From NCBI GenBank assembly GCA_964640155.1, contig CAZXEQ010000001.1, forward strand, positions 1 to 32,000: 32,000 nt of DNA, given 5' to 3'. The DNA comes from an uncultured bacterium. GTDB lineage: Bacteria > Auribacterota > JACPWU01. Positions 1 to 14,605 of the stretch are shown piece by piece. Made by a program: the position numbers and the translations under genes. The notes under the pieces are model-generated. The model worked only from the letters and a program-made list of their open reading frames with translations, ran no database searches and was not told the origin of the DNA. Each line of letters starts with the position of its first letter. Position 1 is the first letter of the stretch.

Positions 1-138
1 ACTCTTGCAGTATCAGAAGGAACATCTGGTCTCACCGGTACATCTGGAGAAATTACTACATCCCCCATAGGAACATCAGGAGTAACTGCATCCACTCTTG
101 CAGTATCAGAAGGAACATCTGGTCTCACCGGTACATCT
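1..138 (-). repeat. 93-bp (31-codon) in-frame tandem repeat inside PD linker c
   Basis: Positions 1-45 and 94-138 are identical (actcttgcagtatcagaaggaacatctggtctcaccggtacatct), encoding PDVPVRPDVPSDTAR twice. The array may continue beyond the left edge. Confidence 0.85.
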
Positions 139-323
139 ACAGATGGCATTCCCCTATCATCTACAGGTAAAATATCCGGAATTTTAGGCGTGTCTAAAGG
201 AACAGGCACATCATCTGATGGCATTCCAGTCTCTGTTATATCGGGAAGAACTACAGCTTTGTCAGCAACTCCCGAGGAATCATCAGCACTTGCATCCGCA
301 TCCTGGTGATAATCACCATAAAA
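1..323 (-). repeat. Asp/Pro-rich low-complexity linker (PD linker c), running off the left edge
   Basis: The sequence is FYGDYHQDADASADDSSGVADKAVVLPDITETGMPSDDVPVPLDTPKIPDILPVDDRGMPSVDVPVRPDVPSDTARVDAVTPDVPMGDVVISPDVPVRPDVPSDTAR. Confidence 0.8.
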
Positions 324-3300
324 ACATCCCACGAAAGTCAAAGTAGCTGCAATCAATAACGCCATAGCTCCTTTAGTCCTTGGAGCTATTGAAGTCATTT
401 CAGAAACAGAAACTCCTGTTATCTGACTTAATGCTCTAAATACTTCTTCCTTTCTTGACTCTACTCCTCTTACTCTTTCTCTCTCTTGGGCATTAATGCT
501 CTGCGATGTCTGTATGAATCTCATCACTGCTTTAAATTGTTCGTCTAACGATCTATCACTGTTCTCTACTAACAACTTTACAAATCCTTCTTCTCCTCCC
601 ATCTCTTCTATAAAGATTCTTCTCTCTTCTTCTGTCTTTCTCCTGAAATCATCTAGACTCCATAATATCGGTAATACTTCCCCATATGTCCCATGATCTA
701 TTGCTTCGTGTCCCATGACACTGGCTAATACGCTATTTGAATAGGGTCGCCCTGTTCTCTTATTATTTCTCAGTAAGTCATCATCTATCCCTATATATCC
801 CGGATTAATGACTCGCGCTATCGTGTCTCCATCCGAATATATTCCTATTCCTGTCTCTACATTCCTCATCCCGGGGTATTTTGCTATTACTGCTTCCCAC
901 GCTTCCCCTAATCTCTCTTCTTGGAAACCTGTGTATTTTCCTTCACTGATTCTACCCATTCCTGTTGGCTCTGATTGATAACCTACTTCTCCTATTTCTT
1001 TCTTCCCTGTACGTATCGGGGTGGGGCCTAAGCCTGTTAAATCTATTTCAAATCTTCCTCCTCCGGCTGGGTTTATATCAGAAGGTCTGACTTGATATTG
1101 TATTACTTGATACATTCTGTCTGAGCCCGCTGCCATTAATGTACTTGTCGCTATGCTTGAATTCCATGTTCCACTTCCAAATGTTCCGGGTCTAAATATA
1201 TACACTCCTCTACTATCTTGGAAAACAACACTAAATCCATTTAAAAGGGTAGGTACAAATTGGAAGTTGATCGCTGATAACCCTGTGGCATCTATCGGAG
1301 TCGCTCTGTATACACTTAAATACGCTACTGCTGTCGAGGTTCCTAAAGGAACATTTCCAGAAAATCTGTAAGCTCGACCCCCTATTGACGTAACACTTGC
1401 CGTTGCTCCGTCTAGTCCTCCAACAGATAAATACGTGCCAGGGAAAAATGTTGGTGAAGGTGCGGGGCCTGATCTCGTACTCCCACTTACACTCCTTGCT
1501 CCTGCAACACTAATAAGTAAGGGGGCAGGAGGCATAACATCTGGAACATCTTCTCCACTTGCATCTACACCTACTTCTGTAGGCGGTACATCTTCAACAT
1601 CTCTCACATCAATACTTGCATCCATTCGTACAACATCGGGACCTGCATCTGGACTAGGCATATCTACCCTAGGAATATCCATAGGAGTTACATCTGCGTC
1701 AGGTCGTGGAACATCCATTGAAACCGGTACGTCTTCAGGCCTTGCGTCCATGGGAACATCTATGCCGACATCCGGCCGTGCATCCGGACCGCGGTCAACA
1801 GGAAACGGCATATCAGGAGAAATTATATCTGGGGTTGCATCAGGACTACCTGCATCTAAAACATCTGTTGGCAAAACTACATCAACAGCTGCATCTGTTA
1901 CATCGGCACCAGCATCTGCTCTGGGCACAGCTGTCGGATGAGAAAGTCCACAGCTTACACCTATGAAAACTGCTAATATAGCAACAACCCCCATCACCCG
2001 GTTTGATACGCCACCTAATGTTCTCCAAAAAAGATTGGGACGTCCTATTTTAAAAATAGTTTTTGTTAATCTATTTTGTAGCTCATTCAACCCCTCTTGT
2101 AACCCCTTAAACGGGCTACCTTTTTTGAATGTAGAAATTTGTTTAAAGAAATTTCCAATTCCTCCGATGAGAAGCGTTAACCACGTCCCTCCAATACTTG
2201 CTTGACTAACCGGCCTCCTCAAATTTTTAGCAACGATATCGATTACTAAATTAGGGGCTGAAACTGCTTGCCCTCCTGTTATCTGACTTAATGCTCTAAA
2301 TACTTCTTCCTTCCTTGACTCTACTCCTCTTACTCTTTCTCTCTCTTGGTCATTAATGCTCTGCGATGCCTCAATAAATCTCATCACTGCTTCAAATTGT
2401 TCGTCCAACGATCTTTCACTGTTCTCTACTAACAACTTTACAAATCCCTCTTCTTCTCCCATCTCTTCCACAAACACTCTTTTCTCTTCAGCAGTCTTAC
2501 GCCTAAAATCATCTAGACTCCATAATATCGGCAATACTTCTCCATATGTCCCATGATCTATTGCTTCATGTCCCATGACACTGGCTATCACACTATTTGA
2601 ATACGGCCGACCTGTTCTTCTATTATCTTTTAATAAGTCATCATCTATTCCTATATATCCCAGATTAATGACTCGGGCAATCGTGTCTCCATCCGAATAT
2701 ATTCCTATTCCTGTATCTACATTCCTCATCCCTGGGTATTTTTCTATTACTTCTGCCCACGCTGCCCCTAATCTCCCTTCCTGGAAACCTGTGTATTTTC
2801 CTTCCCTGATTCTCCCCATTCCTGTTGGCTCTGATTGATAACCTGCTCCTACTTTTATCTTCCCTGTTCGTATCGGAGTTGGACCGCCAGAAACTAATCC
2901 ATTGATATCTAATTCGAATCTGCCTCCTCCAGATGGATTTACATCCGCACCACTGATTTGAATTTGTATCACCTGGAATCTTCCTGACAAACCTGCTGTT
3001 CTCCATCCTGATCCCATCACAGTTGTTGGATTTGTTCCGTACAATAAAAAATTCCAAGCACCACTTCCAAACACACCAGGAATAAATAAACCCACTTGAC
3101 CTCGATTATCTCTTAAAAATGCACGAAAGCTATCGACAAATGTTGCATAAAATCGAACATTCATGACATCACCAGTCAGTCCAGTCGCATCCATTCCAGT
3201 TGGTGACAATGCACTTAAATAAGCTACTGAATTTCCATCGCCTACTACTACCGTTCCTTCAAATCGATACGTATTTGGCCCAATCCAACGAGATGTTCTT

Positions 3301-6300
3301 ACGATTGCCCCGCCTACTCCAGCTGGTGTAAAATAGCTGTTTGAAAAATATGTTGGCATACGAAGACCACTGACTGTTTGTCCTTCAAGTCTTAGAGCTA
3401 CAGTTACAGGAATAAGCTCAGGAGCAGGAGGTGCAACATCTACTCTTGTATCTTGTGGAACATCCACCCTAACTTCTGGACCTCTATCAGTTGCAACATC
3501 TAATGCTGCATCTGGTGGCACTGGAACATCTGGTGATCTTAAAGCATCTATCGGTGTTGCTACATCCGGTGAATATGAATCCATGCTCGTTGTATCAGTG
3601 AAAACTCCTGCATCAGTAGTAGTGGCATCTATAGCTGCTACATCAGAAACTGGCGCATCAACACCTTCATCAACTGTAGGTATGTCACCACTCACGACCT
3701 CTATCGGAGCAGAGGCATCGACAACGGAAATATCTGCTGGGGGCATAGCATCTGGGATTGCTGGCATATCAACTGGCAGGCGTACATCTGATGCCGATTG
3801 ATCTACAAAAGCATCAGAAACTCCTGCGTCCGGAGTTTGCGTACGAACATGACATAAGCTCATTAAATCAAAGGAAAAACGACCTGAATCAAGAACATTT
3901 TGCGCAGGAATTTGAATTTGTATGGTTCTAAACTGCCCACTTCCTCCAGAATCTCTCACCATTCCCATGGAAAGCTCCTGAGTCCACACTCCTTCCGTCA
4001 AAGGTAAAGTCGTAGAATGATAATATCTAGAATCTCCTTTAGAACGTCTCTCAAAATCCTCTAACGCTAAAAATAAATCTCTCAGCCCAGTCTGACGAAA
4101 ACGGATATTCATTTGATCGCCCGGTAGACTTCTAGCATCCATAGGCATATCTCCCATGGAAATCGTTATATAAACTCCCGCTCCGGAAGAAATTCCCGCA
4201 TCTTGCGAAACTGGCATTTGTCCTTCTACGCGATAATGATCACCTTCTGAAATAAGTCTAGCTCTTGCACCTCCTAGCGTGGTAATTCTCACACTTGTAC
4301 CAGGAAAATAAGTAGCCGGAGTCTCTTGCCTTCTAGAAGTTTGTCCAGTTAGAGGTGATGTTCCTCTAATAGGAATAGGAGGTGGTCCATCAGTAACTTC
4401 TTCTAATCCAGAATCGGAAACTGCAGCCTCGGCATCCACACCAGTTTCTGCAGCAACACCTTCCTCACGCAAAGGCCCAAAACATCCCACAAAAGTCAAA
4501 GTAGCTGCAATCAATAACGCCATAGCTCCTTTAGTCCTTGGAGATATTGAAGTCACTGCAGAAACAGAAACTCCTGTAATCTGACTTAATGCTCTAAATA
4601 CTTCTGCCTTCCTTGACTCTACTCCTCTTACTCTTTCTCTCTCTTGCTCATTAATGCTCTGCGAGGTCTGTATGAATCTCATCACTGCTTTAAATTGTTC
4701 GTCCAACGATCTTTCACTGTTCTCTACTAACAACTTTACAAATCCTTCTTCTGATCCCATCTCTTCTATAAAGATTCTTCTCTCTTCTTCTGTCTTTCTA
4801 CTGAAATCATCTAGACTCCATAATATCGGTAATACTTCCCCATATGTCCCATGATCTATTGCTTCGTGTCCCATGACACTGGCTAATACGCTATTTGAAT
4901 AGGGTCGCCCTGTTCTCTTATTATTTCTCAGTAAGTCATCATCTATCCCTATATATCCCGGATTAATGACTCGCGCTATCGTGTCTCCATCCGAATATAT
5001 TCCTATTCCTGTCTCTACATTCCTCATCCCGGGGTATTTTGCTATTACTGCTTCCCACGCTTCCCCTAATCTCTCTTCTTGGAAACCTGTGTATTTTCCT
5101 TCACTGATTCTACCCATTCCTGTTGGCTCTGATTGATAACCTACTTCTCCTATTTCTTTCTTCCCTGTACGTATCGGGGTGGGGCCTAAGCCTGTTAAAT
5201 CTATTTCAAATCTTCCTCCTCCGGCTGGGTTTATATCAGAAGGTCTGACTTGATATTGTATTACTTGATACATTCTGTCTGAGCCCGCTGCCATTAATGT
5301 ACTTGTCGCTATGCTTGAATTCCATGTTCCACTTCCAAATGTTCCAGGTCTAAATACATACACTCCTCTACTGTCTTGGAAAACAACACTAAATCCATTT
5401 AATAGGGTAGGTACAAATTGGAAGTTGATCGCTGATAATCCTGTGGCATCTATGGGAGTTGCTCTATATACACTTAAATATGCTACTGCTGTCGAGGTTC
5501 CTAAAGGAACCATTCCAGAAAATCTGTATGCTCTACCCCCTATTGACGTAACACTTGCTGTTGCTCCGTCTAATCCTCCAGCAACCAAATATGCCCCTGA
5601 AAAAAAAGTCGGTGATGTAGCTGTTCCTGATGTCGTACTCCCACTTATACTCCTTGCTCCTGCAACGCTGATCAATGCCGGTGCTATGGGTGGTATAGCC
5701 AAAGCATCTATCTGTAAAGCAACACTTACAGTTGGACTTGTCCCACTTGTGACTTGATCTCCTCCCACTTGAACTTCAATCTGAGCTATATTTGAGGCGC
5801 TAAATCCAGAGGGTAAACTTGAAACTAATATTTCCCCACGACCAAACATACCAGGGGTTACCGTCACAGGAGCAACTCCCGTAACAATTCGTCCAGAACC
5901 ATCTTGTAATTGATAGGTTACTCTTGCAACATTGGTAACATTACCAATACCAATATGAAGTTGACCAGTCACCGCTGTGCCTGTTGTAAAATTTCTTGCT
6001 GCACCCGCTGGAATCCTATAAACCGTAATCATTTTGGATCCGGCCATTCCTCGAGTCACTGTTCCACTTGCATTCCATACAAGTCTTGATGTAGTAACAC
6101 CCGATACGGATGAAGCTGATCTTGATAAGGGTGCTGTACTCCAAGAACCTATTCCTGAGCCCCCTCCGTATCCAACTGTTTCTACAGTCACACCCGGTCT
6201 AAAATCAATTGGACCATCTACAACATTCGTAACGGGAAAGGTAGGTGAAGCTAAAGGTAAATCTGCGACAGTCAATGCCTTGGGTCCACTCAATGCTACT

Positions 6301-9300
6301 TCTACTAGCCCACTTCCATCTGGGATGTGTCGTCCCTCTATGACTCTGATAAGTCTAAATGTATTGGCATTGATTAGGGCAGGTACTTCAGATGCTGGCC
6401 TTCCCATCGCTGCTGCAAGTCGATTGATTAATTCCATTCGGTCTACTACAGGCACTCCCCACATCGTTGCTCGGCCATTTGTTACTTCTACAGTCGCTTG
6501 ATAGGTCGCTCCTCCAACCACTAACTCTGCCTTTAATGTATATCCATTTAGATTTCCTCGTGTGTCCCTTAATCCCGAGCTCCATGTGCTGTCACTTAAA
6601 AATGCCGTCTTTCCTGCTGCGCTGAGTTCACTTGAGAAGCCTGCAAATGCTCCTCCACTGACTCCCGTGTATCTGAGTCTCCTTGTGTACATCACTGTTC
6701 CATGTGCTTCTCTATCTGTGACAACATTCTCTGCTACGGTTACAACTCCCATTGTTCCAAATGCACTCTCCGTTGTGACTCCATAAAAGTCTTCTGTTCC
6801 ATCTGCACTTGCTGTCACTCGTAATGGATTGCTTGCGTTAAAGTCTGTGATGGTTAATGCCTTGGGTCCACTCAATGCTACTTCTACTGTCCCACTTCCA
6901 TCTGTGATGTGTCTTCCCTCTATAACTCTAATAAGTCTAAATGTATTGGCATTGATTAATGCAGGCACTTCAGCTGGTGTTCTTCCCATCGCGGCTGCGA
7001 GTCGGTTTATTAATTCCATTCGGTCTACTACCGGTACTCCCCACATCGTTGCTCTTCCATTTGTTACTTCTACTGTCGCTTGATACGTCGCTGTCCCTAT
7101 CACTAATTCTGCCTTTAACGTATATCCATTCAGATTTCCACGTGTGTCTCTTAACCCCGATGTCCATGTGCTGTCTGCTAAAAACGCTGTCTTTCCTGCT
7201 GCGTTGAGTTCACTTGAAAAGCCTGCAAATGCTCCTCCCATGACTCCCGTGTATCTTAATCTTCGGGTGTACATCACAGGTCCATGTGCCTCTCGATCTG
7301 TGACTACATTCTCTGCGACTGTTACAACTCCCGTTGTCCCAAATGCACTCTCGGTCGTGACTCCATAAAAGTCTTCTGTTCCATCTGCACTTGCTGTCAC
7401 TCGTAATGGATTGCTTGCATTAAAATCTGTGATGGTTAGTCTCTTCGCTCCTATTAAGGCCACTCTCACTTCTGTTCCACTAGTTAATTGGCTTCCAGCT
7501 ACTTTCCTCTGAAGCCTAAACACTCCAATTCGTATCATCCCTTCTAATGTTGTTCGATCTACTCCCGTTGCCAAAGCCAATCTTTGCAGTAACATATTTC
7601 TATCAACTGGCGCAAAACCTACAGCATTCATTCCTACTCTTCTTGGAATATCTATCTGAGCTTGTCTTGTACGTAATACTCCCATAGCATCGCGATATTC
7701 TAATTCAGCCTGTAACGTATATCCTCTTAAGTTTCCCGTTAAATCATTAATTCCTGAGACCCAAGTTGAGTCTGCCAAAAATGCTGTTTTACCTGCATCA
7801 TCCAACTCTTCACTATAACCAAATGACAATCCACCCGTAACTCCTGTCGCAACAAGCCGTCTTACGTATTGTTCACCACTACTCATCACGCCTTCAGCTC
7901 TCGCATCAATGACTGAATCTGTGACTGTCACTGCACTTGAAGAAAACACACCTGAGGTTCTTACTCCATAATAATCTATTTCTCCACTAGCGCTTTCCAT
8001 ACCTCGAAGTGTATTGCTTGCATAAAAATCTGAAATAGTTAGACGTTTAGGTCCGCTCATTCCAACATCTACAATATCGCTGCCATCTGTAATATGACGT
8101 CCTTCAATCACTCTCATGAGTCTGAAAGGATTATTTCTAATTAAACCCTCTACTTCTGAAACAGATCTTCCCATTCTTGCAGCAAGTTGAGTAATTAATT
8201 CCATCCGATTCACGACGGGCACTCCCCACATCGTCCCTCTCATATTAGAAACTTCAACATCTGCTTGATACTTCATACCGCCAATCTCTAATTCAGCTCT
8301 CAATGTATATCCACTGAGATTCCCTCGTCTATCCTTTAACCCTGATGTCCACTGTGCATCTGATAAAAATGCTGCCTTACCTTCAGCATTTAATTCAGTT
8401 AAAAATGCAGCATATCTATTTCTTGATACTCCTGAATATCGTACTTGCCTTGTATACATTTCTGTTCCATGAGGATCTCGATCTGTAACAATATTTTCCT
8501 CTACTGTTACCAAAGGTCGTCCAGTTGAAACATCCACTGTTCCAAAAGCATTTTCTGACTCTACACCATAAAAATCATCTACACCGTCCGCACTTGCATT
8601 CACTCGGATAGTTGTATCCACCATTAATTTTGACATATAGACCACACCATGAGCGCTGGACCCTCCAGCTGATTCCGCAACAGCACCAATATTTCTCACA
8701 TCTTCCCACCGTACAGGTGATTGTCCTGAAGGAACAGGGAAAACCCGTCTTAAATCTTCTTCACGAATTTCAATTCTATTTGAACTATTGGGAGTTGTGT
8801 TAGCTTGCAGTTCTATTCTGAATTTTCCAATTCTTCCATCTCTTAATGTAATCTGAAAATAAATTATCTGAGCTGTATCTGTTTTAACATACCGACGAAG
8901 AACACCTCCTGAAGCGGTGACGGCCCTTCTAATATTTTGAGCAGTCATTTCTGCAGTTCCCTCAAGAGATTGTCCTACCGCAGCGTATTCTCCACCATTC
9001 AAAGTCCAATCCCACTGAATACTTGCGCCATCTGCTACACGTATCGGTTCTGCGTTTGCATCAATATTGGTAACGACAACATCAGAGCTGGATGTCCGCG
9101 TTGGATTTCCAAGGCCAGCAATCTGGGTTGGTGCAGGACCCGTTCCATTATCTTGTTGAACAGTTAAAGAAACAACATTTGCAGTTTGTGTAGATTTAAT
9201 TCCTACTACTCTCATTCGTCCTCTTCTAGCGCGAAAAGAAGGATGATTACTGGGTTCTTCTAAAGTCAATTCAGAAGCAGCTGTTACAAGGTCTCGTCCA

Positions 9301-12300
9301 CGCTCATCCACTAACTGATTTCTTGGAAGACGCACTCGGTACCACGAGTTAGGACGTAACCCTCGCATTAGAAAATGTTTTGTGGTTGTTTGACCAGAAG
9401 CATCAAAACGCGCATTAAAATTGACTCTCATATTGACAGGTTCGCTGCTTCCAGGGGTCATAACTTCTCCACGTGCATTGAGAACTTCATTAATGCCTTC
9501 CAAAAACACCCAGAACACAACGTCATTACCTGTTACCATAAGATCATTTGAAATATTGCGTCCCGCAGCGTTTACTGCCGTAAAAGGGAAAGCCATAACC
9601 GCATATTCTGGCATGTTTTGAGTATTACCATTACGATCTAAATCCCATGTATACCCAATAGCTCTCTCACCAGATCTACGTCCTTCTACAGGAGTTGGTG
9701 ATACCACACTCAATACAAGGCCACTTCCTCCTGTCGCAGAAGTTGCTGAAAGCGCATTCGTCACAAAAGTTGGCATGCCTTCTGCGGTTTGAGTAACTTC
9801 AGCATCTACGGCTAATAAAGAAGGCGGAACACCACATGCCTCCATCAAGATTGCTCCCGCAAGACCTATAGGGGCTGCAACAGATTTAAGCAACATACCT
9901 AAAGCAAAAATGACTGAAATAAATCGACTTCCAAGAAGACCGGAATAATGACGAATCGTTGCAACTCTTTCTCTTAACCTGCGTTCATAGTTAATTGAGG
10001 CACTTGGTCTTCTTGGTTCAAGACCTTTATCTTGTAGTCTTTGAATTAAACGGAAAAAAGTTTGTTCTGTAACTTCCCCTCGCTGACCTCTCACACGAAC
10101 GTCAGATTTATCTTTAAAAGAAACAATAACTTCATAATCATTTCTGTTCGCAGCAGGAATAAATTGAATTTGGTCAATCGTTCGATAAAACTCAGGATAT
10201 TCGTTCCTTAATACTTGATGAAGTCGAGACAACCTGGCTTCTTCATCCAAAAATAGTGGTGGAGCTTGTCCTACAAAAACACTCAACTCTTGTAATAATT
10301 GAGTCCGTGCGGCGTCTCCTAAGTTTAAACCTTTGTCTTCTAGAGCCTCTAAGATAACTCCCCAAAATTGACTGGTAATTAAACCCCCTTCTCTATCCAC
10401 TCCAAGATTTTTAAACACTGTTGTTCCATCAGAAAGACGAATTTGGACGACCCCAACTTCATTCGAACCTGCTCTTACACCATCAGGAAATAAACCATAG
10501 TTTGTAATACGCAAATAAAAAGCAGGATCATTTGCTCGAATGCTGTCTATCACTCTCTGAAGCGCAACAATAACATCATCCCCTTTTTGACCTTGAGATA
10601 AACCAGCTCCAGCCACAGAAGATGAAGATCTAGAGAAAAAATAATCATCAGCAACTACCCTTTCTAAATTAGATCTTTGACGATGTGCAGCTTCATTTTC
10701 CTGCCTTCTATGTTCTCTAGCAAAGTGAATGAACCCTGCGAATAAACCAATGCTCGCCAAAACTATTACAATAATGGCTGCCCATCGACTTGTTCCAGAA
10801 GGCGGACGTATGGATTGAGCAATTAAAGATTTTAACTCTCTTACTCTTTGAGCGAGTTTTCTTTCATAAAGTTCTTCATTTTTATTTATATCTTCCGGTG
10901 TTTTTGTGGGGCCAAAACGAACGTGTTTTACAAGTTCATCTAACTGACGATCCATACCATCTTGTGTCATGCGTCTAGCTTCAACTTCTATTCTTAATCT
11001 TGCTTTTTCTGCTTCATAATCTTTCACCGACCCCACTGCAATAGCACCTAATTTCAATTGCTTACCTTCGCTATTGGGTGCCGTAGCCTGAATCAAAGCC
11101 CATTCAAACTTGACCACAGGAACATAAATCGTTTTTCCATTTCTGAAATAGGTTTGTACCTTAACGCTGACAATAGGATCAATCTTGCTTTTGGCTTGAG
11201 CAGCCTTTTGAGCTAACTCTTCTTGAACCTCTTTCGTTTTTCCTTCTCTACGCAGCTTAAGAAGTTTTTGAACATCGTCCTCACTTAAACCTACGTATCT
11301 AGCGATGGCAGGAATATCTTGAAAAAAAGTATTCGTATTCATCCAAGGCACAGTTGCAGAGTTCACATCTGATGGAAGTTGTGGATCTTCTACTCCTACT
11401 AATGTCCCATTTTGTGCTAAAAGAGATCCACCTTTTTGACCTTCAGGTCGAGAAGCAACCTCCATGACAGACTCAACACCATGCTCTTTATTCATCTCCA
11501 CAAAAATCCCTAACATCACCCAAAAATCTTCGTCAATATTCGAAACAGCATTATCCACATTCATAACATAAACAAATTTTCTATCCTGTTCAAGAAGGTC
11601 TAGCAAAGTACCACTACGAACAAGATCTGCAATCCAGTCAAAATGATTCTGAACATAAGTAATAGGTTTGCCTTCCGGATCTCTTGCTGTTTCAGCAGGA
11701 TGGGCATTTGCATAAGCTAAAATTTGTTCATATTGATCAATAGTGTCTTGAAGAGTTCGACGCCCATCATCGCTCAAAGATTCTCCACCTTCAAGTCGAG
11801 CACGTGCCTTTTTTGCATCTTTCGCATAAGAACTATTTTCAATATCTGCAACAGTTGGAACACCTGCTTGCGCACCTCCTTGAGTGAATAAGCGAAGTTC
11901 TTCTGGACTCCATCCAAAATTTCCATGACGAGCTAAATAATCTCTCGCAGGTTCATCGGTATTCGGTCCAGTCATTAAAAGAGGAAGAAGACCACTGTCT
12001 CTCTCTCCCATCACTTGCATCAAAAACAGTTCAAGAAAGGTATAGGCTCTTCCATCAATGACAATAGCTGGCACTTGAGCTTTTGCAATAATTTTAGAAA
12101 GGTCTTCACGGTCTGTTTCAGGAAGAGCATCAAAAAGGGGTTTAAAACGCGGATCCGCACGCATGGCCTGTACTTTCATACGTGAAGCATCTCCACCAAC
12201 CATCATGGCTGCTACAGCCTCTTTGGAATGAGCACGACCCAGAGCTTCATAGCGTGCACGATCTTCTGAAGATAATGTGCGAATATCTTTAATAAGAGAA

Positions 12301-14492
12301 TGCTCTTGAACAGGCTGAACTCGCTCAACTTTTTTAGTTTTAAGCTTTCCGCGAAGATAGGCCTCATAGGCTGGATCTCTACCTTCTTGTCCAGTAGCTG
12401 GAGCATTTTTTTGAGCATCAAATTCAGCTGCAGCCACCAAACGACTCGAAAGAGCTTCTAATGTTAATGGTTCACCATCTTTTGCTTGAACGATCAATCC
12501 TCTTCGTTCACCATTAACAATAATTTCAACAAAATATCTTCCCCCTATTAGCTCAGGCTTGTGCACTTCAATTTGAGATTCTGCTTTACTTATCACACTA
12601 GCGATAGTTTTACTTAATTTTTCTTTCCATAGAGCCAAAAGTCTTTGCCAATCCTTATTAGATGTCACAGAAAGAAATTGGAGAACCACAATATCTAAAA
12701 GAGATGCGGCTTCAAGAGACTCTAGTTTTCTAGCAATAAGTTCTGCATCTGCACCAGCATCTCTTACCACTCCTGGATCTTGCCCCATACTTAGAGGAGC
12801 AACAACACTATGCGTCTTGGAAGAAACATCCTTTGTATGTTTTACATCTGTATTCCTAGTAACTGGGGGCTGATAACTAGGGGCTGATGCATGCGTCACT
12901 ATTTCCTTTAAAAGCACATTTTCTAATTCGCTTCTCTCATCTTCCATGATGCTGCGATAAGGAGTTTTAACTTTCAGATCTGTGACTTTGGGAGTGACGA
13001 TGACATAAGAGATGCCTTGTTGTTTAAGCTTTTCAGCCATGCCTTCGGTGTGAAAGCCTCCGGCGAGCAAAACTGTGGTTTGTGATTTATGGTTCAATGT
13101 GTTTTTCACCATCACTTCATCACGTTTTTCAGCCACTTCATAAAATTTCTTTAATTGAGCAATATCTTTAGAAACTTTATCTAATGTTTCTAAGCCATTC
13201 GCATCAATTTTATATTTTTTAGCTAAAGCTTGAATGCTTTCGTGAATCTTTTTCCCATCAACTTGCTTTTTACCTTCCTGATAAAGATTCCAATCGACGC
13301 GTCTCAATTCTAAACGATAGAAAGTCTCAATAAATTCTATTTTTTCTTGCAACTGATGGATTTCTTTTTCTTCCTGAGTCTTTTCTAAACTTTCACGAAC
13401 TCTTGATTCCCATTGTCCAATTTCTTTCAAAAGCTGATCTTTGGCTATCGCATCAAATAATTTAACATACGAGATGTAATTTTTAAAATTCTTCTCTGTG
13501 TTAATGTTTTCTTTCTTCTCTTCTATTTTGCTTGAGAGATAAGCATAAAATTGTGCGGGTTCAATTTTTTCTAAGCGCAAATACAAACTTTGCGTCAAAA
13601 ATTCGGCACGTTCTTCTTTAGACATTTTTGGAAGCAAGCGCTCCATGACTTTGGCTTGCTCTTTTTGGATTTGATTAAAATCTATAACTTTTGAGATCTT
13701 TTCAGCTTGAATGTATTGACCGATATTTTTCAAATCATCTGTATTGATTTTTTTTACTTTGCTTTGCTTTTGCAAATATTCCAAATATTCGGCTAATCCC
13801 TTTCCCCCTTTTTCATAGTCTTCACGGAATTTTGAGTATTCTTTTAACTCTAAGTTAAAAACTTTTTCTCTTAATTCTTTTAAGACTTTTTCAGCTTTCT
13901 CAAACATTCCTTCAGATTGGTCTCTTAAATTTAAAGACTTGTCATACCAGTGCACATTCTGTAAATACAATCCCATCTCTTCTGCACCTTGAATATTTAA
14001 TGGCTGATCTTTCACGATCGATAAGTATTCGGCACCATTGATTTTTCCTTTTCTCATGTAATACAGGGCTAATTCTTTTTTCATCGCTGGATCAGGGAAG
14101 GAAGTCAAAAGAGACGTATCAACATTTCCGCTGGCACCTTCGACATTGACCACTTTAAGACCATGTCCTTCATGTTTCTTGAACAAATCTTCTAAAATTC
14201 TGGCTTCATTGGATTGAGCTTCAAAGTGACAGTGCATATCTTGAAGTTGAATAACAATGGGATTTCCTGCCTTACCTTGAAATTTTGATTGGATTTGACC
14301 AAATTTGGCTGGGATTTTGATGTCTTTAACACTTAGCGGAGTCTGATCTTGTGCGTTTTTAGACACACTTTTAGACTGAATTGGGTCTATTTCTAAGCCT
14401 TGAACAGGTAAACTAGTGATTAAAAAGGTAAATGCTGTAAGAAATGAGATGAATTTTCTCAAAGGTTTATTCTTGAAAGTTGACTGCCCCAT
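1..14492 (-). CDS. Second giant ORF, 3'-partial (4,830 codons inside the window), missing from the ORF track; exported or membrane multi-domain protein with UDPGP-like region, 4 tandem repeats and at least 3 beta-domain + HExxH modules
   Basis: Reverse-complement reading from ATG at 14492 (cat at 14490-14492 on +) gives MGQSTFKNKPLRKFISFLTAFTFLITSLPVQGLEIDPIQSK... There is an in-frame TAA upstream at 14520-14522 and no other start codon between. I translated this frame (minus codons starting at positions with p mod 3 = 2) by hand down to position 3 and met no stop. I made exact codon-by-codon checks at 1-60, 11340-11603, 12180-12218, 14341-14492 and at every motif listed below. The four minus-strand ORFs the track lists here (2665..3057, 6388..6585, 6970..7167, 12212..12421) are all in other frames. 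A stop-closed ORF in this frame would have been listed, so its absence fits an ORF running off the left edge without a stop. Confidence 0.8.
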   Translation of the reverse strand, partial: MGQSTFKNKPLRKFISFLTAFTFLITSLPVQGLEIDPIQSKSVSKNAQDQTPLSVKDIKIPAKFGQIQSKFQGKAGNPIVIQLQDMHCHFEAQSNEARILEDLFKKHEGHGLKVVNVEGASGNVDTSLLTSFPDPAMKKELALYYMRKGKINGAEYLSIVKDQPLNIQGAEEMGLYLQNVHWYDKSLNLRDQSEGMFEKAEKVLKELREKVFNLELKEYSKFREDYEKGGKGLAEYLEYLQKQSKVKKINTDDLKNIGQYIQAEKISKVIDFNQIQKEQAKVMERLLPKMSKEERAEFLTQSLYLRLEKIEPAQFYAYLSSKIEEKKENINTEKNFKNYISYVKLFDAIAKDQLLKEIGQWESRVRESLEKTQEEKEIHQLQEKIEFIETFYRLELRRVDWNLYQEGKKQVDGKKIHESIQALAKKYKIDANGLETLDKVSKDIAQLKKFYEVAEKRDEVMVKNTLNHKSQTTVLLAGGFHTEGMAEKLKQQGISYVIVTPKVTDLKVKTPYRSIMEDERSELENVLLKEIVTHASAPSYQPPVTRNTDVKHTKDVSSKTHSVVAPLSMGQDPGVVRDAGADAELIARKLESLEAASLLDIVVLQFLSVTSNKDWQRLLALWKEKLSKTIASVISKAESQIEVHKPELIGGRYFVEIIVNGERRGLIVQAKDGEPLTLEALSSRLVAAAEFDAQKNAPATGQEGRDPAYEAYLRGKLKTKKVERVQPVQEHSLIKDIRTLSSEDRARYEALGRAHSKEAVAAMMVGGDASRMKVQAMRADPRFKPLFDALPETDREDLSKIIAKAQVPAIVIDGRAYTFLELFLMQVMGERDSGLLPLLMTGPNTDEPARDYLARHGNFGWSPEELRLFTQGGAQAGVPTVADIENSSYAKDAKKARARLEGGESLSDDGRRTLQDTIDQYEQILAYANAHPAETARDPEGKPITYVQNHFDWIADLVRSGTLLDLLEQDRKFVYVMNVDNAVSNIDEDFWVMLGIFVEMNKEHGVESVMEVASRPEGQKGGSLLAQNGTLVGVEDPQLPSDVNSATVPWMNTNTFFQDIPAIARYVGLSEDDVQKLLKLRREGKTKEVQEELAQKAAQAKSKIDPIVSVKVQTYFRNGKTIYVPVVKFEWALIQATAPNSEGKQLKLGAIAVGSVKDYEAEKARLRIEVEARRMTQDGMDRQLDELVKHVRFGPTKTPEDINKNEELYERKLAQRVRELKSLIAQSIRPPSGTSRWAAIIVIVLASIGLFAGFIHFAREHRRQENEAAHRQRSNLERVVADDYFFSRSSSSVAGAGLSQGQKGDDVIVALQRVIDSIRANDPAFYLRITNYGLFPDGVRAGSNEVGVVQIRLSDGTTVFKNLGVDREGGLITSQFWGVILEALEDKGLNLGDAARTQLLQELSVFVGQAPPLFLDEEARLSRLHQVLRNEYPEFYRTIDQIQFIPAANRNDYEVIVSFKDKSDVRVRGQRGEVTEQTFFRLIQRLQDKGLEPRRPSASINYERRLRERVATIRHYSGLLGSRFISVIFALGMLLKSVAAPIGLAGAILMEACGVPPSLLAVDAEVTQTAEGMPTFVTNALSATSATGGSGLVLSVVSPTPVEGRRSGERAIGYTWDLDRNGNTQNMPEYAVMAFPFTAVNAAGRNISNDLMVTGNDVVFWVFLEGINEVLNARGEVMTPGSSEPVNMRVNFNARFDASGQTTTKHFLMRGLRPNSWYRVRLPRNQLVDERGRDLVTAASELTLEEPSNHPSFRARRGRMRVVGIKSTQTANVVSLTVQQDNGTGPAPTQIAGLGNPTRTSSSDVVVTNIDANAEPIRVADGASIQWDWTLNGGEYAAVGQSLEGTAEMTAQNIRRAVTASGGVLRRYVKTDTAQIIYFQITLRDGRIGKFRIELQANTTPNSSNRIEIREEDLRRVFPVPSGQSPVRWEDVRNIGAVAESAGGSSAHGVVYMSKLMVDTTIRVNASADGVDDFYGVESENAFGTVDVSTGRPLVTVEENIVTDRDPHGTEMYTRQVRYSGVSRNRYAAFLTELNAEGKAAFLSDAQWTSGLKDRRGNLSGYTLRAELEIGGMKYQADVEVSNMRGTMWGVPVVNRMELITQLAARMGRSVSEVEGLIRNNPFRLMRVIEGRHITDGSDIVDVGMSGPKRLTISDFYASNTLRGMESASGEIDYYGVRTSGVFSSSAVTVTDSVIDARAEGVMSSGEQYVRRLVATGVTGGLSFGYSEELDDAGKTAFLADSTWVSGINDLTGNLRGYTLQAELEYRDAMGVLRTRQAQIDIPRRVGMNAVGFAPVDRNMLLQRLALATGVDRTTLEGMIRIGVFRLQRKVAGSQLTSGTEVRVALIGAKRLTITDFNASNPLRVTASADGTEDFYGVTTESAFGTTGVVTVAENVVTDREAHGPVMYTRRLRYTGVMGGAFAGFSSELNAAGKTAFLADSTWTSGLRDTRGNLNGYTLKAELVIGTATYQATVEVTNGRATMWGVPVVDRMELINRLAAAMGRTPAEVPALINANTFRLIRVIEGRHITDGSGTVEVALSGPKALTITDFNASNPLRVTASADGTEDFYGVTTESAFGTMGVVTVAENVVTDREAHGTVMYTRRLRYTGVSGGAFAGFSSELSAAGKTAFLSDSTWSSGLRDTRGNLNGYTLKAELVVGGATYQATVEVTNGRATMWGVPVVDRMELINRLAAAMGRPASEVPALINANTFRLIRVIEGRHIPDGSGLVEVALSGPKALTVADLPLASPTFPVTNVVDGPIDFRPGVTVETVGYGGGSGIGSWSTAPLSRSASSVSGVTTSRLVWNASGTVTRGMAGSKMITVYRIPAGAARNFTTGTAVTGQLHIGIGNVTNVARVTYQLQDGSGRIVTGVAPVTVTPGMFGRGEILVSSLPSGFSASNIAQIEVQVGGDQVTSGTSPTVSVALQIDALAIPPIAPALISVAGARSISGSTTSGTATSPTFFSGAYLVAGGLDGATASVTSIGGRAYRFSGMVPLGTSTAVAYLSVYRATPIDATGLSAINFQFVPTLLNGFSVVFQDSRGVYVFRPGTFGSGTWNSSIATSTLMAAGSDRMYQVIQYQVRPSDINPAGGGRFEIDLTGLGPTPIRTGKKEIGEVGYQSEPTGMGRISEGKYTGFQEERLGEAWEAVIAKYPGMRNVETGIGIYSDGDTIARVINPGYIGIDDDLLRNNKRTGRPYSNSVLASVMGHEAIDHGTYGEVLPILWSLDDFSRKTEEERRIFIEEMGSEEGFVKLLVENSERSLDEQFKAVMRFIQTSQSINEQERERVRGVESRKAEVFRALSQITGVSVSAVTSISPRTKGAMALLIAATLTFVGCFGPLREEGVAAETGVDAEAAVSDSGLEEVTDGPPPIPIRGTSPLTGQTSRRQETPATYFPGTSVRITTLGGARARLISEGDHYRVEGQMPVSQDAGISSGAGVYITISMGDMPMDARSLPGDQMNIRFRQTGLRDLFLALEDFERRSKGDSRYYHSTTLPLTEGVWTQELSMGMVRDSGGSGQFRTIQIQIPAQNVLDSGRFSFDLMSLCHVRTQTPDAGVSDAFVDQSASDVRLPVDMPAIPDAMPPADISVVDASAPIEVVSGDIPTVDEGVDAPVSDVAAIDATTTDAGVFTDTTSMDSYSPDVATPIDALRSPDVPVPPDAALDVATDRGPEVRVDVPQDTRVDVAPPAPELIPVTVALRLEGQTVSGLRMPTYFSNSYFTPAGVGGAIVRTSRWIGPNTYRFEGTVVVGDGNSVAYLSALSPTGMDATGLTGDVMNVRFYATFVDSFRAFLRDNRGQVGLFIPGVFGSGAWNFLLYGTNPTTVMGSGWRTAGLSGRFQVIQIQISGADVNPSGGGRFELDINGLVSGGPTPIRTGKIKVGAGYQSEPTGMGRIREGKYTGFQEGRLGAAWAEVIEKYPGMRNVDTGIGIYSDGDTIARVINLGYIGIDDDLLKDNRRTGRPYSNSVIASVMGHEAIDHGTYGEVLPILWSLDDFRRKTAEEKRVFVEEMGEEEGFVKLLVENSERSLDEQFEAVMRFIEASQSINDQERERVRGVESRKEEVFRALSQITGGQAVSAPNLVIDIVAKNLRRPVSQASIGGTWLTLLIGGIGNFFKQISTFKKGSPFKGLQEGLNELQNRLTKTIFKIGRPNLFWRTLGGVSNRVMGVVAILAVFIGVSCGLSHPTAVPRADAGADVTDAAVDVVLPTDVLDAGSPDATPDIISPDMPFPVDRGPDARPDVGIDVPMDARPEDVPVSMDVPRPDADVTPMDIPRVDMPSPDAGPDVVRMDASIDVRDVEDVPPTEVGVDASGEDVPDVMPPAPLLISVAGARSVSGSTRSGPAPSPTFFPGTYLSVGGLDGATASVTSIGGRAYRFSGNVPLGTSTAVAYLSVYRATPIDATGLSAINFQFVPTLLNGFSVVFQDSRGVYIFRPGTFGSGTWNSSIATSTLMAAGSDRMYQVIQYQVRPSDINPAGGGRFEIDLTGLGPTPIRTGKKEIGEVGYQSEPTGMGRISEGKYTGFQEERLGEAWEAVIAKYPGMRNVETGIGIYSDGDTIARVINPGYIGIDDDLLRNNKRTGRPYSNSVLASVMGHEAIDHGTYGEVLPILWSLDDFRRKTEEERRIFIEEMGGEEGFVKLLVENSDRSLDEQFKAVMRFIQTSQSINAQERERVRGVESRKEEVFRALSQITGVSVSEMTSIAPRTKGAMALLIAATLTFVGCFYGDYHQDADASADDSSGVADKAVVLPDITETGMPSDDVPVPLDTPKIPDILPVDDRGMPSVDVPVRPDVPSDTARVDAVTPDVPMGDVVISPDVPVRPDVPSDTAR
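324..365 (-). other. Internal lipoprotein-signal-peptide look-alike L3 (M4710 to C4723)
   Basis: RTKGA-MALLIAATLTFVG-C-FYGDYHQDADASADD has the same peptide as L1. It is again followed by an acidic/Pro-rich linker. Confidence 0.5.
693..710 (-). other. HExxH motif (HEAIDH, ORF A aa 4595-4600) of module M3
   Basis: The codon string is the same as in M1 (cac gaa gca ata gat cat). Confidence 0.55.
1521..1949 (-). repeat. Asp/Pro-rich low-complexity linker (PD linker b, 143 aa)
   Basis: The sequence is GLSHPTAVPRADAGADVTDAAVDVVLPTDVLDAGSPDATPDIISPDMPFPVDRGPDARPDVGIDVPMDARPEDVPVSMDVPRPDADVTPMDIPRVDMPSPDAGPDVVRMDASIDVRDVEDVPPTEVGVDASGEDVPDVMPPAP. Confidence 0.8.
1950..1994 (-). other. Internal lipoprotein-signal-peptide look-alike L2 (M4167 to C4181)
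   Basis: The sequence is GGVSNRV-MGVVAILAVFIGVS-C-GLSHP, with an uncharged core and an I-G-V-S-C tail. A weaker hydrophobic stretch, TWLTLLIGGIGNFF, lies upstream at about 2143-2190. Confidence 0.45.
2265..3424 (-). repeat. Module copy M2 (diverged): J domain about 2886-3424, HEAIDH zincin-like domain about 2265-2885
   Basis: The zincin part is visibly similar to M1 and M3 at nucleotide level (compare 2356..2556 with 496..696 and 4654..4854 in the track). The offsets are 2,298 and 1,860 bp, both multiples of 3. The J part is conserved mainly at protein level. Confidence 0.8.
2553..2570 (-). other. HExxH motif (HEAIDH, ORF A aa 3975-3980) of module M2
   Basis: cat gaa gca ata gat cat, in the context NSVIASVMGHEAIDHGTYGEVLPILWSLDDFRRKTAEEKR. 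Confidence 0.55.
3425..3838 (-). repeat. Asp/Pro/Val/Ala-rich low-complexity linker (PD linker a)
   Basis: The sequence is TQTPDAGVSDAFVDQSASDVRLPVDMPAIPDAMPPADISVVDASAPIEVVSGDIPTVDEGVDAPVSDVAAIDATTTDAGVF...SPDVPVPPDAALDVATDRGPEVRVDVPQDTRVDVAPPAP. Confidence 0.8.
3842..4365 (-). other. Orphan beta jelly-roll-like domain J0 (homologous to the J domains of M1-M3 but with no zincin partner)
   Basis: J0 reads TYFPGTSVRITTLGGARARLISEGDHYRVEGQ...GDQMNIRFRQTGLRDLFLALEDF...GQFRTIQIQIPAQNVLDSGRFSFDLMSL. The M2 J domain reads TYFSNSYFTPAG...YRFEGT...VMNVRFYATFVDSFRAFLRDN...GRFQVIQIQISGADVNPSGGGRFELDINGL. The two align over these pieces. Confidence 0.4.
4482..4523 (-). other. Internal lipoprotein-signal-peptide look-alike L1 (M3324 to C3337)
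   Basis: The sequence is SPRTKGA-MALLIAATLTFVG-C-FGP. It has a basic n-region, an uncharged hydrophobic core and a T-F-V-G-C tail that fits the lipobox pattern. It is followed by an acidic/Pro-rich tether. Confidence 0.5.
4851..4868 (-). other. HExxH motif (HEAIDH, ORF A aa 3209-3214) of module M1
   Basis: cac gaa gca ata gat cat, read from + gtg/ttc/tgc/tat/atc/atg triplets. The context is NSVLASVMGHEAIDHGTYGEVLPILWSLDDFSRKTEEERR, with acidic residues 20-28 aa downstream as a possible third ligand. Confidence 0.55.
5685..6250 (-). other. Gly/Thr/Val-rich beta-type (Ig-like?) spacer domain of ORF A
   Basis: The sequence is VDGPIDFRPGVTVETVGYGGGSGIGSW...KMITVYRIPAGAARNFTTGTAVTGQLHIGIGNVTNVARVTYQLQDGSGRIVTGVAPVTVTPG...IAQIEVQVGGDQVTSGTSPTVSVALQ. 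It alternates hydrophobic and polar residues. I did not recognise a family. Confidence 0.3.
6251..8597 (-). repeat. Four in-frame tandem repeats of an unassigned 194-201-aa domain (R1 8597-7998, R2 7997-7395, R3 7394-6813, R4 6812-about 6251)
   Basis: R3 and R4 are offset by exactly 582 bp. The track's shadow ORFs 6562..6786 and 7144..7368 show the same offset. The shared protein pattern is ASADGTEDFYGV..TDREAHG.VMYTRRLRYTGV..AGKTAFL.DSTW.SGLRDTRGNLNGYTLKAEL..YQATVEVTNGRATMWGVPVVDRMELINRLAAAMGR..FRLIRVIEGRHI.DGSG.VEVALSGPKALTI.DFNASNPLRVT. R1 and R2 are clearly homologous but diverged, with lengths of 200 and 201 aa. Confidence 0.9.
9837..9923 (-). other. Second hydrophobic/TM segment of ORF A (about aa 1524-1552)
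   Basis: The sequence is GSR-FISVIFALGMLLKSVAAPIGLAGAILMEACG-VPP. It is preceded by the basic stretch RRLRERVATIRHYSGLLGSR. Confidence 0.55.
10008..10575 (-). repeat. Weak internal duplication (two units of about 75-85 aa) between the two TM helices of ORF A
   Basis: Unit a (about 10320-10575): DPAFYLRITNYGLFPDG..VGVVQIRLSDGTTVF..REGGLITSQFWGVILEALEDKGLNLG. Unit b (about 10008-10232): YPEFYRTIDQIQFIPAA..YEVIVSFKDKSDVRV..QRGEVTEQTFFRLIQRLQDKGLEP. Shared pattern: FY-R-I, beta-like V-V, Q-F---L--L-DKGL. Confidence 0.35.
10716..10784 (-). other. Transmembrane helix (ORF A aa 1237-1259)
   Basis: The sequence is SGTSR-WAAIIVIVLASIGLFAGFIHF-AREHRRQE. It has 23 uncharged hydrophobic residues flanked by basic residues. 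Confidence 0.6.
11090..12275 (-). other. UDPGP-family (UTP-glucose/GlcNAc-1-phosphate uridylyltransferase-like) domain inside ORF A, about aa 740-1135
   Basis: Four motifs occur in the family order:
- AVAAMMVGGDASRMK (12180-12218), compare the glycine loop GGxGT[SR][ML]G
- AIVIDGRAYTFLELFLMQV
- FVYVMNVDNAVSNIDEDFW (11520-11576), compare NxDNLG
- VMEVASRPEGQKGGSLL (11418-11468), compare EVTxKxxxDxKGGTL
A fifth piece, VPWMNTNTFF (11322-11351), compares with FNTNNxW. The codon-by-codon translation of 11340-11603 was verified. Confidence 0.5.
13044..14249 (-). other. Possible Tiki/TraB/ChaN-like motif pair (very tentative)
   Basis: The N-terminal motif IQLQDMHCHFEAQSNEARILEDL has H87 and H89 at 14226-14234. 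The distal motif TTVLLAGGFHTEGMAEKLKQQGISYVIV has H481 at 13050-13052. This recalls the GxxH...Q and GxGH...G motif pair of that superfamily. The spacing (about 390 aa) is longer than I would expect. Confidence 0.2.
14397..14492 (-). other. N-terminal signal peptide or signal anchor of ORF A
   Basis: MGQSTFKNKPLRKFISFLTAFTFLITSLPVQG/LEIDP has a basic n-region (K,K,R,K) and an uncharged hydrophobic core of about 18 residues. Small residues precede a possible cleavage point. Confidence 0.6.
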
Positions 14493-14500
14493 GTTTATAA

Positions 14501-14506
14501 CCTCTT
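14501..14506 (-). promoter_or_regulatory. Shine-Dalgarno sequence of the 14492 ORF
   Basis: The minus strand reads AAAAGAGGTTATAAAC-ATG. AAGAGG (cctctt on +) lies 8 nt upstream of the ATG. Confidence 0.6.
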
Positions 14507-14560
14507 TTATTTGAATAAGTTATATCATCATCAGCCACTAAAAAAGCTTTTAACATACAT

Positions 14561-14588
14561 AATATACCACATCAAGGCTGAAATGCAA
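14561..14588 (-). promoter_or_regulatory. Candidate sigma70-type promoter in the 113-bp spacer (TTGCAT - 16 nt - TGgTATATT extended -10)
   Basis: The minus strand reads TTGCAT TTCAGCCTTGATGTGG TATATT. The -35-like hexamer is at 14583-14588, the -10-like hexamer at 14561-14566, and a TG lies one base upstream of the -10. This is sequence resemblance only. Confidence 0.3.
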
Positions 14589-14605
14589 GTTTGAGACGCT
14601 TTTTT

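Follow-up and report, generated by a model that had tools for sequence, protein, structure and literature searches.

The window analyzed here comprises 32,000 nucleotides (nt) from an uncultured bacterium (contig CAZXEQ010000001.1, positions 1 to 32,000), and its left part reads on the minus strand, from position 14492 to position 3, as one uninterrupted open reading frame (ORF), which we call ORF A. We consider it quite probable (roughly 0.85) that ORF A represents the first 14.5 kb (5' end) of a very long gene, that it is the second of two tandem giants filling the window (the other being its upstream neighbor, ORF B), and that it belongs to a class of very long membrane proteins described chiefly from Omnitrophota, of which the locus would be an Auribacterota-like example. 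The host is related to Candidatus Auribacterota, a PVC-group neighbor of Omnitrophota. Comparable giant genes were already on record for these lineages, where an open frame of such length is by itself ordinary; what appears worth following is a large unannotated N-terminal domain family and a chain of lipoprotein-like signals, both found in the ORF A product. The specific functional picture that we propose for this product is more tentative, at a little under even odds.

Reverse-complement translation from the ATG at positions 14490 to 14492 yields 4,830 sense codons with zero stops, and a scan of positions 3 to 14492 for any in-frame stop found none, as stated in the original prediction, which had been made by reading the sequence together with a program-made list of its ORFs. 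TAA, TAG, and TGA are all absent from the frame, against approximately 333 stops expected by chance per frame (mononucleotide shuffles of the same composition) and 168 to 433 stops in each of the five other frames of the same stretch; with the exception of ORF B, no open stretch in any other frame of the window exceeds 189 codons. The stop-free stretch around the start spans 4,839 codons. The nearest in-frame stop upstream, a TAA at positions 14520 to 14522, lies 10 codons before the ATG, and none of the nine in-frame codons between the two is ATG, GTG, or TTG. Immediately ahead of the start (...AAAAGAGGTTATAAAC-ATG), a Shine-Dalgarno (SD)-like AAGAGG (positions 14501 to 14506, minus strand) is followed by 8 nt and then the ATG, so that both the SD sequence and the upstream stop are where they had been placed. 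On its left side, the window ends before the C terminus of the product is reached.

ORF A is missing from the ORF track of the window because it runs off the left edge without a stop inside it, which is the reason that had been offered for the omission and which fits the documented behavior of the lister: it is stop-bounded, does not list ORFs that run off an end, and showed three ORFs of ≥150 amino acids (aa). Besides ORF A, the ORFs of ≥90 aa within positions 1 to 14600 are three on the plus strand (148 to 168 aa) and one on the minus strand (2665 to 3057), and a Pfam search with these four recovered no match. The plus-strand ORFs are short, without family matches, and wholly within the constrained frame, in keeping with their earlier description as antisense shadows; the sole minus-strand one lies in a different frame, in line with the earlier remark that none of the listed minus-strand ORFs shares the frame of ORF A. 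In practical terms, nearly the whole 32-kb window consists of two genes that are hidden or truncated by a stop-bounded ORF track, and annotation pipelines need to allow edge-truncated ORFs, as such regions otherwise appear gene-poor.

ORF A is a genuine protein-coding gene under purifying selection. We judge it to be coding because the frame is open far beyond chance, shows a three-base periodicity, and has a low ratio of nonsynonymous to synonymous substitution rates (dN/dS) in two independent comparisons. Codon-position composition stays steady across the nine blocks of 500 codons each (G at position 1, 0.31 to 0.42; G+C at position 3, 0.23 to 0.32), and dN/dS is 0.11 to 0.38 among the internal repeat copies of ORF A and 0.15 (dS, 0.52; 1,518 aligned codons) between ORF A and an orthologue; these values support the earlier reading of one uninterrupted coding frame. 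The orthologue is encoded on contig JAYRIK010000164.1 (L002) of a metagenome-assembled genome (MAG) labelled Candidatus Auribacterota (PVC group), in which the homologues of ORF B and ORF A follow each other in the same order. It begins with the identical ATGGGGCAG, is 85 to 87% identical in amino acid sequence, and stays open for 1,558 codons up to the contig end, so that it spans the first 1,558 residues of ORF A (about the first third). The start of ORF A, its signal peptide, and the upstream partner gene are all kept in this contig.

The product of ORF A is predicted to begin with a Sec-type signal peptide (aa 1 to 32; 14397 to 14492, minus strand), with a K/R-rich n-region and a hydrophobic core (FISFLTAFTFLITSLPV) followed by VQG↓LE, and the homologues P0001 and P0003 start with a similar signal-type N terminus. 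Behind it, alignment with homologues delimits a conserved domain of ~480 aa (aa ~55 to 530; 12903 to 14330, minus strand), which is the only part of ORF A with wide homology. Its invariant motifs, namely, QDxH(C), EG, GxE, RD, and GGFH, are all present in ORF A, and no model for it was found in Pfam or NCBIfam. A search of an index of 5.8 billion proteins with aa 1 to 1240 recovered three matches; BLASTP comparisons of the domain with P0001, P0002, and P0003 gave E values of 2e-82, 2e-45, and 2e-39, and tblastn against 80 genome loci gave E values down to 1e-102. A full HMMER scan of 1.84 billion proteins with a four-sequence profile recovered 9,729 cluster representatives at E ≤ 1e-3 and 6,557 at E ≤ 1e-30 (clusters at 50% identity); ORF A was one of the four sequences, and the count thus gives the size of the family and not the membership of ORF A in it. 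The same profile recovered no match in the 5.8-billion-protein index, which we lay to a probably saturated word-based candidate list, because the full scan with this profile was so productive.

In the top 150 matches of the family, the domain occupies residues ~15 to 525 of proteins of 421 to 6,707 aa, mostly 2,000 to 4,000 aa, and across the family it is nearly always N-terminal, behind a signal peptide. The species genomes of GTDB hold 254 loci with the domain, nearly all of them in Omnitrophota MAGs (27 to 33% identity), the two best being from Auribacterota (83% and 36% identity). Some ORFs behind the domain are stand-alone versions of ~520 to 560 aa, and the longest exceed 3,884 aa. Partner domains in the long members include PGM/PMM (10 of 13), as well as PGK, PFK, PGI, transaldolase, SIS, and LbH, and other long members carry CofD or multiple protein kinases. 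With ~9,700 clusters and no Pfam or NCBIfam model, this domain would be well suited to being defined as a new family and to structural or biochemical work. A phage origin is unlikely, as only one weak relative of the domain was recovered from IMG/VR (L082). On a separate 24-kb Logan contig (L001; SRR28093593), which carries the distant homologue P0003, there are very long genes only, encoding >2,553 aa, 1,847 aa (Metallophos), 2,072 aa (ARMT1-like), and >1,363 aa.

An AlphaFold2 model of the N-terminal domain (predicted local distance difference test score [pLDDT], 78.8) has a split alpha/beta core with a helical insert of ~300 residues. A Foldseek search of the PDB with this model returned nothing significant, the only compact matches being weak ones to RRSP/PMT-C1 and the erythromycin esterase EreC (probability, 0.04 to 0.18), and a profile search of PDB sequences recovered nothing. 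On account of these weak matches and the invariant QDxH and GGFH motifs, we offer a hydrolase fold like that of the TIKI/TraB/erythromycin-esterase/ChaN superfamily as a lead only. The likeness would lie in the split alpha/beta core with its large helical insert, in a beta-strand close to the N terminus that is followed by the invariant His of QDxH, and in the position of GGFH after a late strand. We take these two motifs to resemble the GTxH and GxxH motifs of the TIKI/TraB-type superfamily, again as a lead only.

The next segment of ORF A is a UDP-sugar pyrophosphorylase-like domain (aa 741 to 1235; 10788 to 12272, minus strand), in which the Pfam model UDPGP (PF01704) matches the core at aa 932 to 1075 with an E value of 2.4e-10 and a score of 40.1 bits for the whole ORF or 45.8 bits for the segment, against a curated cutoff of 22. 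This was the sole match in Pfam scans of ORF A and ORF B. The NVDN, KGG, and NTN motifs of ORF A align to solved UDP-glucose pyrophosphorylases (UGPases) in the PDB (E = 4e-5), and a GG-x-x-S-R-M loop was seen by eye only at aa 765 to 771. The domain aligns with the central catalytic core of the eukaryote-type UDP-glucose/UDP-sugar pyrophosphorylases and keeps these three motifs; it differs from them in that the alignment covers only profile positions 149 to 289 of 413. Moreover, the eukaryote-type UGPases are cytosolic enzymes of ~500 aa, whereas the ORF A domain is a piece of a predicted exported protein of at least 4,830 aa.

Beyond this domain, ORF A is a succession of hydrophobic segments, repeats, and linkers, and its beta-rich repeats and module copies are specific to the lineage. 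A Kyte-Doolittle scan finds six to seven hydrophobic segments in all, the first of which in this region is a strong predicted transmembrane helix, H1 (aa 1237 to 1255; 10728 to 10784, minus strand; Kyte-Doolittle value, 2.57). Two small repeats (aa 1256 to 1516) separate H1 from the hydrophobic segment H2/H3 (aa 1517 to 1555; 9828 to 9944, minus strand), which follows an R-rich stretch and ends in ILMEAC-G. A beta-rich sequence (aa 1556 to 2935) includes four tandem repeats, R1 to R4, of ~195 aa each (aa 1962 to 2772; 6177 to 8609, minus strand), which are 40 to 88% identical by BLASTP, have dN/dS values of 0.11 to 0.30 among copies, and match no Pfam model or known family.

The remainder is organized around three modules of ~390 aa each, M1 (aa 2935 to 3322; 4527 to 5690), M2 (aa 3700 to 4090; 2223 to 3395), and M3 (aa 4321 to 4705; 378 to 1532), all on the minus strand, each with a beta-rich first half and a second half of ~205 aa that contains MGHEAIDHG and is ~90% identical in all copies. 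At the protein level, M3 is 95% identical to M1 (dN/dS, 0.24), and M2, with a diverged beta-rich first half, is 66% identical to both. M1 and M3 also form DNA repeats that are 92 to 96% identical and lie 4.2 kb apart. Three lipoprotein-signal-like helices stand between or after the modules: H4 (aa 3323 to 3341; 4470 to 4526, minus strand; PRTKGA-MALLIAATLTFVG-C, ending in FVG-C), H6 (aa 4166 to 4184; 1941 to 1997, minus strand; NRVMGVVAILAVFIGVS-C, ending in GVS-C), and H7 (aa 4706 to 4724; 321 to 377, minus strand), which is identical to H4. H4 is followed by a beta-rich region (aa 3342 to 3560) and a Pro/Asp/Val-rich linker leading to M2 (aa 3560 to 3700; 3393 to 3815, minus strand), H6 by a Pro/Asp-rich linker (aa 4190 to 4320; 1533 to 1925, minus strand), and H7 by a Pro/Asp/Val-rich linker that is cut by the window edge (aa 4725 to 4830; 3 to 320, minus strand). 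From this repeating pattern, at least one further module is expected beyond the left edge. No homologue of the modules was recovered from the 5.8-billion-protein index (searched with M1), from JGI metagenome contigs (searched with a module profile), or from 82 fetched loci; tblastn searches of the latter with both ORFs recovered relatives only for the N-terminal domain and for aa 5187 to 5394 of ORF B. An AlphaFold2 model of M1 was unusable (pLDDT, 32.8). MGHEAIDHG was considered as a zincin HEXXH motif and rejected, as it reads H-E-x-x-x-H and the module has no Pfam match.

Several features place ORF A among the very long proteins of Omnitrophota and other PVC phyla, which are described as having many transmembrane helices and largely unannotated sequence (bioRxiv 10.1101/2023.11.21.568195) and 94% of which, in a set of 916, have a signal peptide or transmembrane helix (bioRxiv 10.64898/2026.06.07.730766). 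ORF A likewise combines a predicted N-terminal signal peptide with several hydrophobic helices, is mostly unannotated, has internal repeats whose DNA sequences have diverged, embeds a sugar-nucleotide/sugar-phosphate enzyme domain in its chain, lies next to another very long gene, and shares its ~480-aa domain with hundreds of Omnitrophota loci (27 to 33% identity). Long members of its N-terminal family also carry PGM/PMM, a marker family of the sugar-metabolism module defined among the Omnitrophota proteins (bioRxiv 10.64898/2026.06.07.730766). The nearest described counterparts of ORF A are thus the "multi-enzyme/sugar-metabolism" class of Nielsen and Lui 2026 and the "large/giant" genes of West-Roberts et al. 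2023. The same study counted 137 long proteins with no match in any InterPro member database, and here the ~10,600 residues of the two ORFs are almost wholly without annotation. The nearest locus to ORF A is the syntenic Candidatus Auribacterota contig (85% amino acid identity), and its other relatives are nearly all from Omnitrophota MAGs. Proteins of >5,000 aa are known from Auribacterota-related MAGs (PMC12057145), and the large secreted protein of Ca. Menyafoubacter described there resembles ORF A in coming from the same candidate phylum neighborhood and in having a Sec signal peptide and several thousand residues; it differs in lacking a transmembrane helix and in having CASH/pectin-lyase-like, RHS, and TSP3 domains, none of which was detected in ORF A. 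There are also differences from the Omnitrophota class itself: the nearest relative of ORF A is labelled Auribacterota, its C-terminal modules have no detectable relatives in the protein index, JGI contigs, or fetched loci, and Pfam scans of the visible parts of ORF A and ORF B did not find the SecA-DEAD, C39/S8 peptidase, dockerin, or TSP3 domains of the Omnitrophota giants. Most giant genes, though not all, are reported to have a SecA-DEAD-like domain, a C39 or S8 peptidase, or both close to the N terminus.

Several points weigh against our main reading of ORF A. Its visible length of 4,830 aa is below the published thresholds ("large," ≥10,000 aa, and "giant," ≥30,000 aa [West-Roberts 2023]; the catalogue of Nielsen and Lui 2026 likewise starts at ≥10,000 aa); its stop lies beyond the left edge, and an exact-match DNA search with positions 187 to 257 of the window found no match in genome, metagenome, or viral collections and hence gave no leftward extension. 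Placement of the host by its relatives depends on the label of one MAG. A nucleotide-sugar enzyme domain behind a signal peptide is odd. The repeat-rich C-terminal two-thirds of ORF A has only internal evidence as its backing (the open frame, the periodicity, and dN/dS between copies), since the orthologue ends at residue 1,558. Finally, the topology that can be read from the sequence is not self-consistent, in that the homologous modules could not all sit outside the membrane by simple threading.

In the functional picture that we favor tentatively, the ORF A product would be exported by Sec and anchored in the cytoplasmic membrane, and flexible tethers rich in Pro and Asp would present its beta-rich repeats and modules at the envelope of the cell. 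Its N-terminal domain, together with the nucleotide-sugar enzyme domain, would link it to those very long Omnitrophota proteins that are of the sugar-metabolism type. Roles proposed for the latter are the handling of surface glycans, attachment, and attacks on other cells (10.1101/2023.11.21.568195; 10.64898/2026.06.07.730766).

The difficulty with topology centers on the helices. Judged by charge distribution, all these internal hydrophobic segments favor an N-in/C-out, signal-like orientation, with no clear stop-transfer helix between them, because of which simple alternate threading would not bring the three modules to the same side: it would leave M2 inside, but M1 and M3, which are 95% identical to each other and 66% identical to M2, outside. 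Furthermore, four of the six cysteines of ORF A, those at residues 1553, 3337, 4181, and 4723, stand at the C-terminal end of a hydrophobic segment, after an R/K-rich stretch and before an acidic or Pro/Asp-rich linker, in the lipobox-like sequences FVGC (twice), GVSC, and EAC. Measured against the usual definition of a lipoprotein signal (a positive n-region, a hydrophobic h-region, and a lipobox of the form [LVI][ASTVI][GAS]C), the n- and h-regions are present in these segments, position -3 or -2 of the lipobox is not canonical, and the segments are internal rather than N-terminal.

An alternative account of these observations, which we regard as improbable, albeit the best of the rivals, is that the C-terminal half of ORF A strings lipoprotein precursors together in one frame as a polyprotein, the units of which are fused without stops. 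In each unit, a signal carrying a lipobox-like Cys would be joined to a Pro/Asp linker, a beta module, and also a conserved domain. The units would be separated after synthesis, whether through processing of the signal peptidase II/Lgt type or through internal initiation, and the cell would end up with several tethered lipoproteins in place of a single chain of 5,000+ aa. The placement of four of only six Cys residues in 4,830 aa at the ends of signal-like helices favors this, as ~28 such positions exist among the 4,830 and three independent hits among five Cys would occur by chance with a probability of ~2e-6 (a post hoc estimate), and so does the uniform N-in/C-out orientation of the segments with no clear stop-transfer helix. 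An AAAGGAG just ahead of the ATG of both FVGC segments (aa 3324 and 4710) would suit internal initiation, but its spacing to the ATG is 2 nt, and AAA-GGA simply encodes Lys-Gly. Giant Omnitrophota proteins with peptidase domains proposed to cut them (10.1101/2023.11.21.568195) and one protein with signal-peptidase-II content (10.64898/2026.06.07.730766) have been published, but neither a peptidase nor an Lsp domain turned up in the Pfam scans of ORF A and ORF B. The lipoboxes, F-V-G-C, G-V-S-C, and E-A-C, are likewise not canonical, and the helices could instead be relics of fusion or duplication of lipoprotein genes that possibly now act as plain anchors. To our knowledge, there is no described precedent for lipoproteins made from such a polyprotein. 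If these signals were in use, one giant frame would give rise to several separately exported, lipid-anchored surface proteins, either by internal initiation or by export that starts again and again along one chain and is followed by cleavage, and this would account more generally for those layouts of giant Omnitrophota proteins that have been reported as topologically "impossible." The chain of lipoprotein-signal-like segments offers a testable handle on the threading and processing of very long exported proteins.

We consider it less likely still that the assembly went wrong at the near-identical 1.2-kb repeats M1 and M3, through a mis-join or a miscount of the copies, such that the C-terminal part is not colinear with the genome. 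The high identity of these DNA repeats (92 to 96%) at a distance of 4.2 kb, the tendency of metagenome assemblies to break or collapse at such repeats, and the break of the related contig at residue 1,558 would be compatible with such an artefact. However, the copies differ at 4 to 8% of their bases, mostly synonymously, as expected of distinct loci and not of one collapsed copy; the unique sequence between them (M2, the linkers, and H6) is in the same frame; and a mis-join would break the frame with a 2 in 3 chance at each junction. Mis-assembly is thus unlikely because the open frame, the constant codon bias, and the mostly synonymous differences persist over all junctions. Last, that ORF A is noncoding or open by chance, or that an unusual genetic code has produced it as an artefact, has next to no probability: most of its sequence is without database matches, but there are 0 stops against ~333 expected, a strong three-base periodicity, dN/dS well below 1 in two independent comparisons, a Pfam domain scoring above its curated cutoff, and an N-terminal domain with homologues in ~9,700 protein clusters, and stop-codon reassignment is not needed, as no stop of any kind is present in the frame and ORF B ends at a normal TAA.

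ORF B, the upstream neighbor, fills the rest of the window (14606 to 32000, minus strand) and was absent from the original prediction. It has at least 5,797 codons, with its N terminus beyond the right edge, and ends at the TAA of positions 14606 to 14608. No match to it was found in Pfam, NCBIfam, or PADLOC; its orthologue in the related contig is 79 to 81% identical, with dN/dS values of 0.08 to 0.6 by segment. Three clusters of predicted transmembrane helices lie at aa 2408 to 2761 (23717 to 24778), aa 4040 to 4277 (19169 to 19882), and aa 4621 to 4639. The only stretch of ORF B with relatives in Omnitrophota loci is aa 5187 to 5394 (L047, 5431 to 6054, and L015, 3938 to 4375; ~29% identity by tblastn), which has no family match and may be a metallopeptidase-like domain. 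Within it, aa 5324 to 5328 (16016 to 16030) read HELGH, an HEXXH motif.

The stop of ORF B and the start of ORF A are separated by a spacer of 113 nt (14493 to 14605, minus strand). Over the final ~110 nt ahead of the ORF A start, the window and the related contig (~9890 to 10000 of the latter) share 92% identity, against a synonymous divergence of ~0.5 in the genes; the spacer is therefore more conserved than the synonymous sites of the genes, which suggests that it is a functional leader or promoter candidate of ORF A. A simple consensus scan of the spacer found no consensus promoter or terminator, and an Rfam search of the window gave no match. The spacer contains TTGCAT-16 nt-TATATT. In the related contig, the spacer between the giant genes is ~775 nt long (9227 to 10000) and holds a 90-aa GIY-YIG ORF (PF01541; E = 1.4e-15). 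On either side of this ORF, which the window lacks, lie 36-nt direct repeats and 16-nt palindromes, a layout expected of a small mobile insertion. The idea that ORF B and ORF A form one gene was rejected, as they are in different frames with a TAA between them and the GIY-YIG gene is inserted between them in the related contig; it is also contradicted by the signal peptide of ORF A and by its first domain, which is N-terminal throughout its family.

A scan of the DNA found no notable tandem repeats. Cysteine is strongly depleted in both giant proteins (6 of 4,830 residues in ORF A and 12 of 5,797 in ORF B), and the coding (minus) strand has a consistent excess of G over C across the entire window (3 to 32000).

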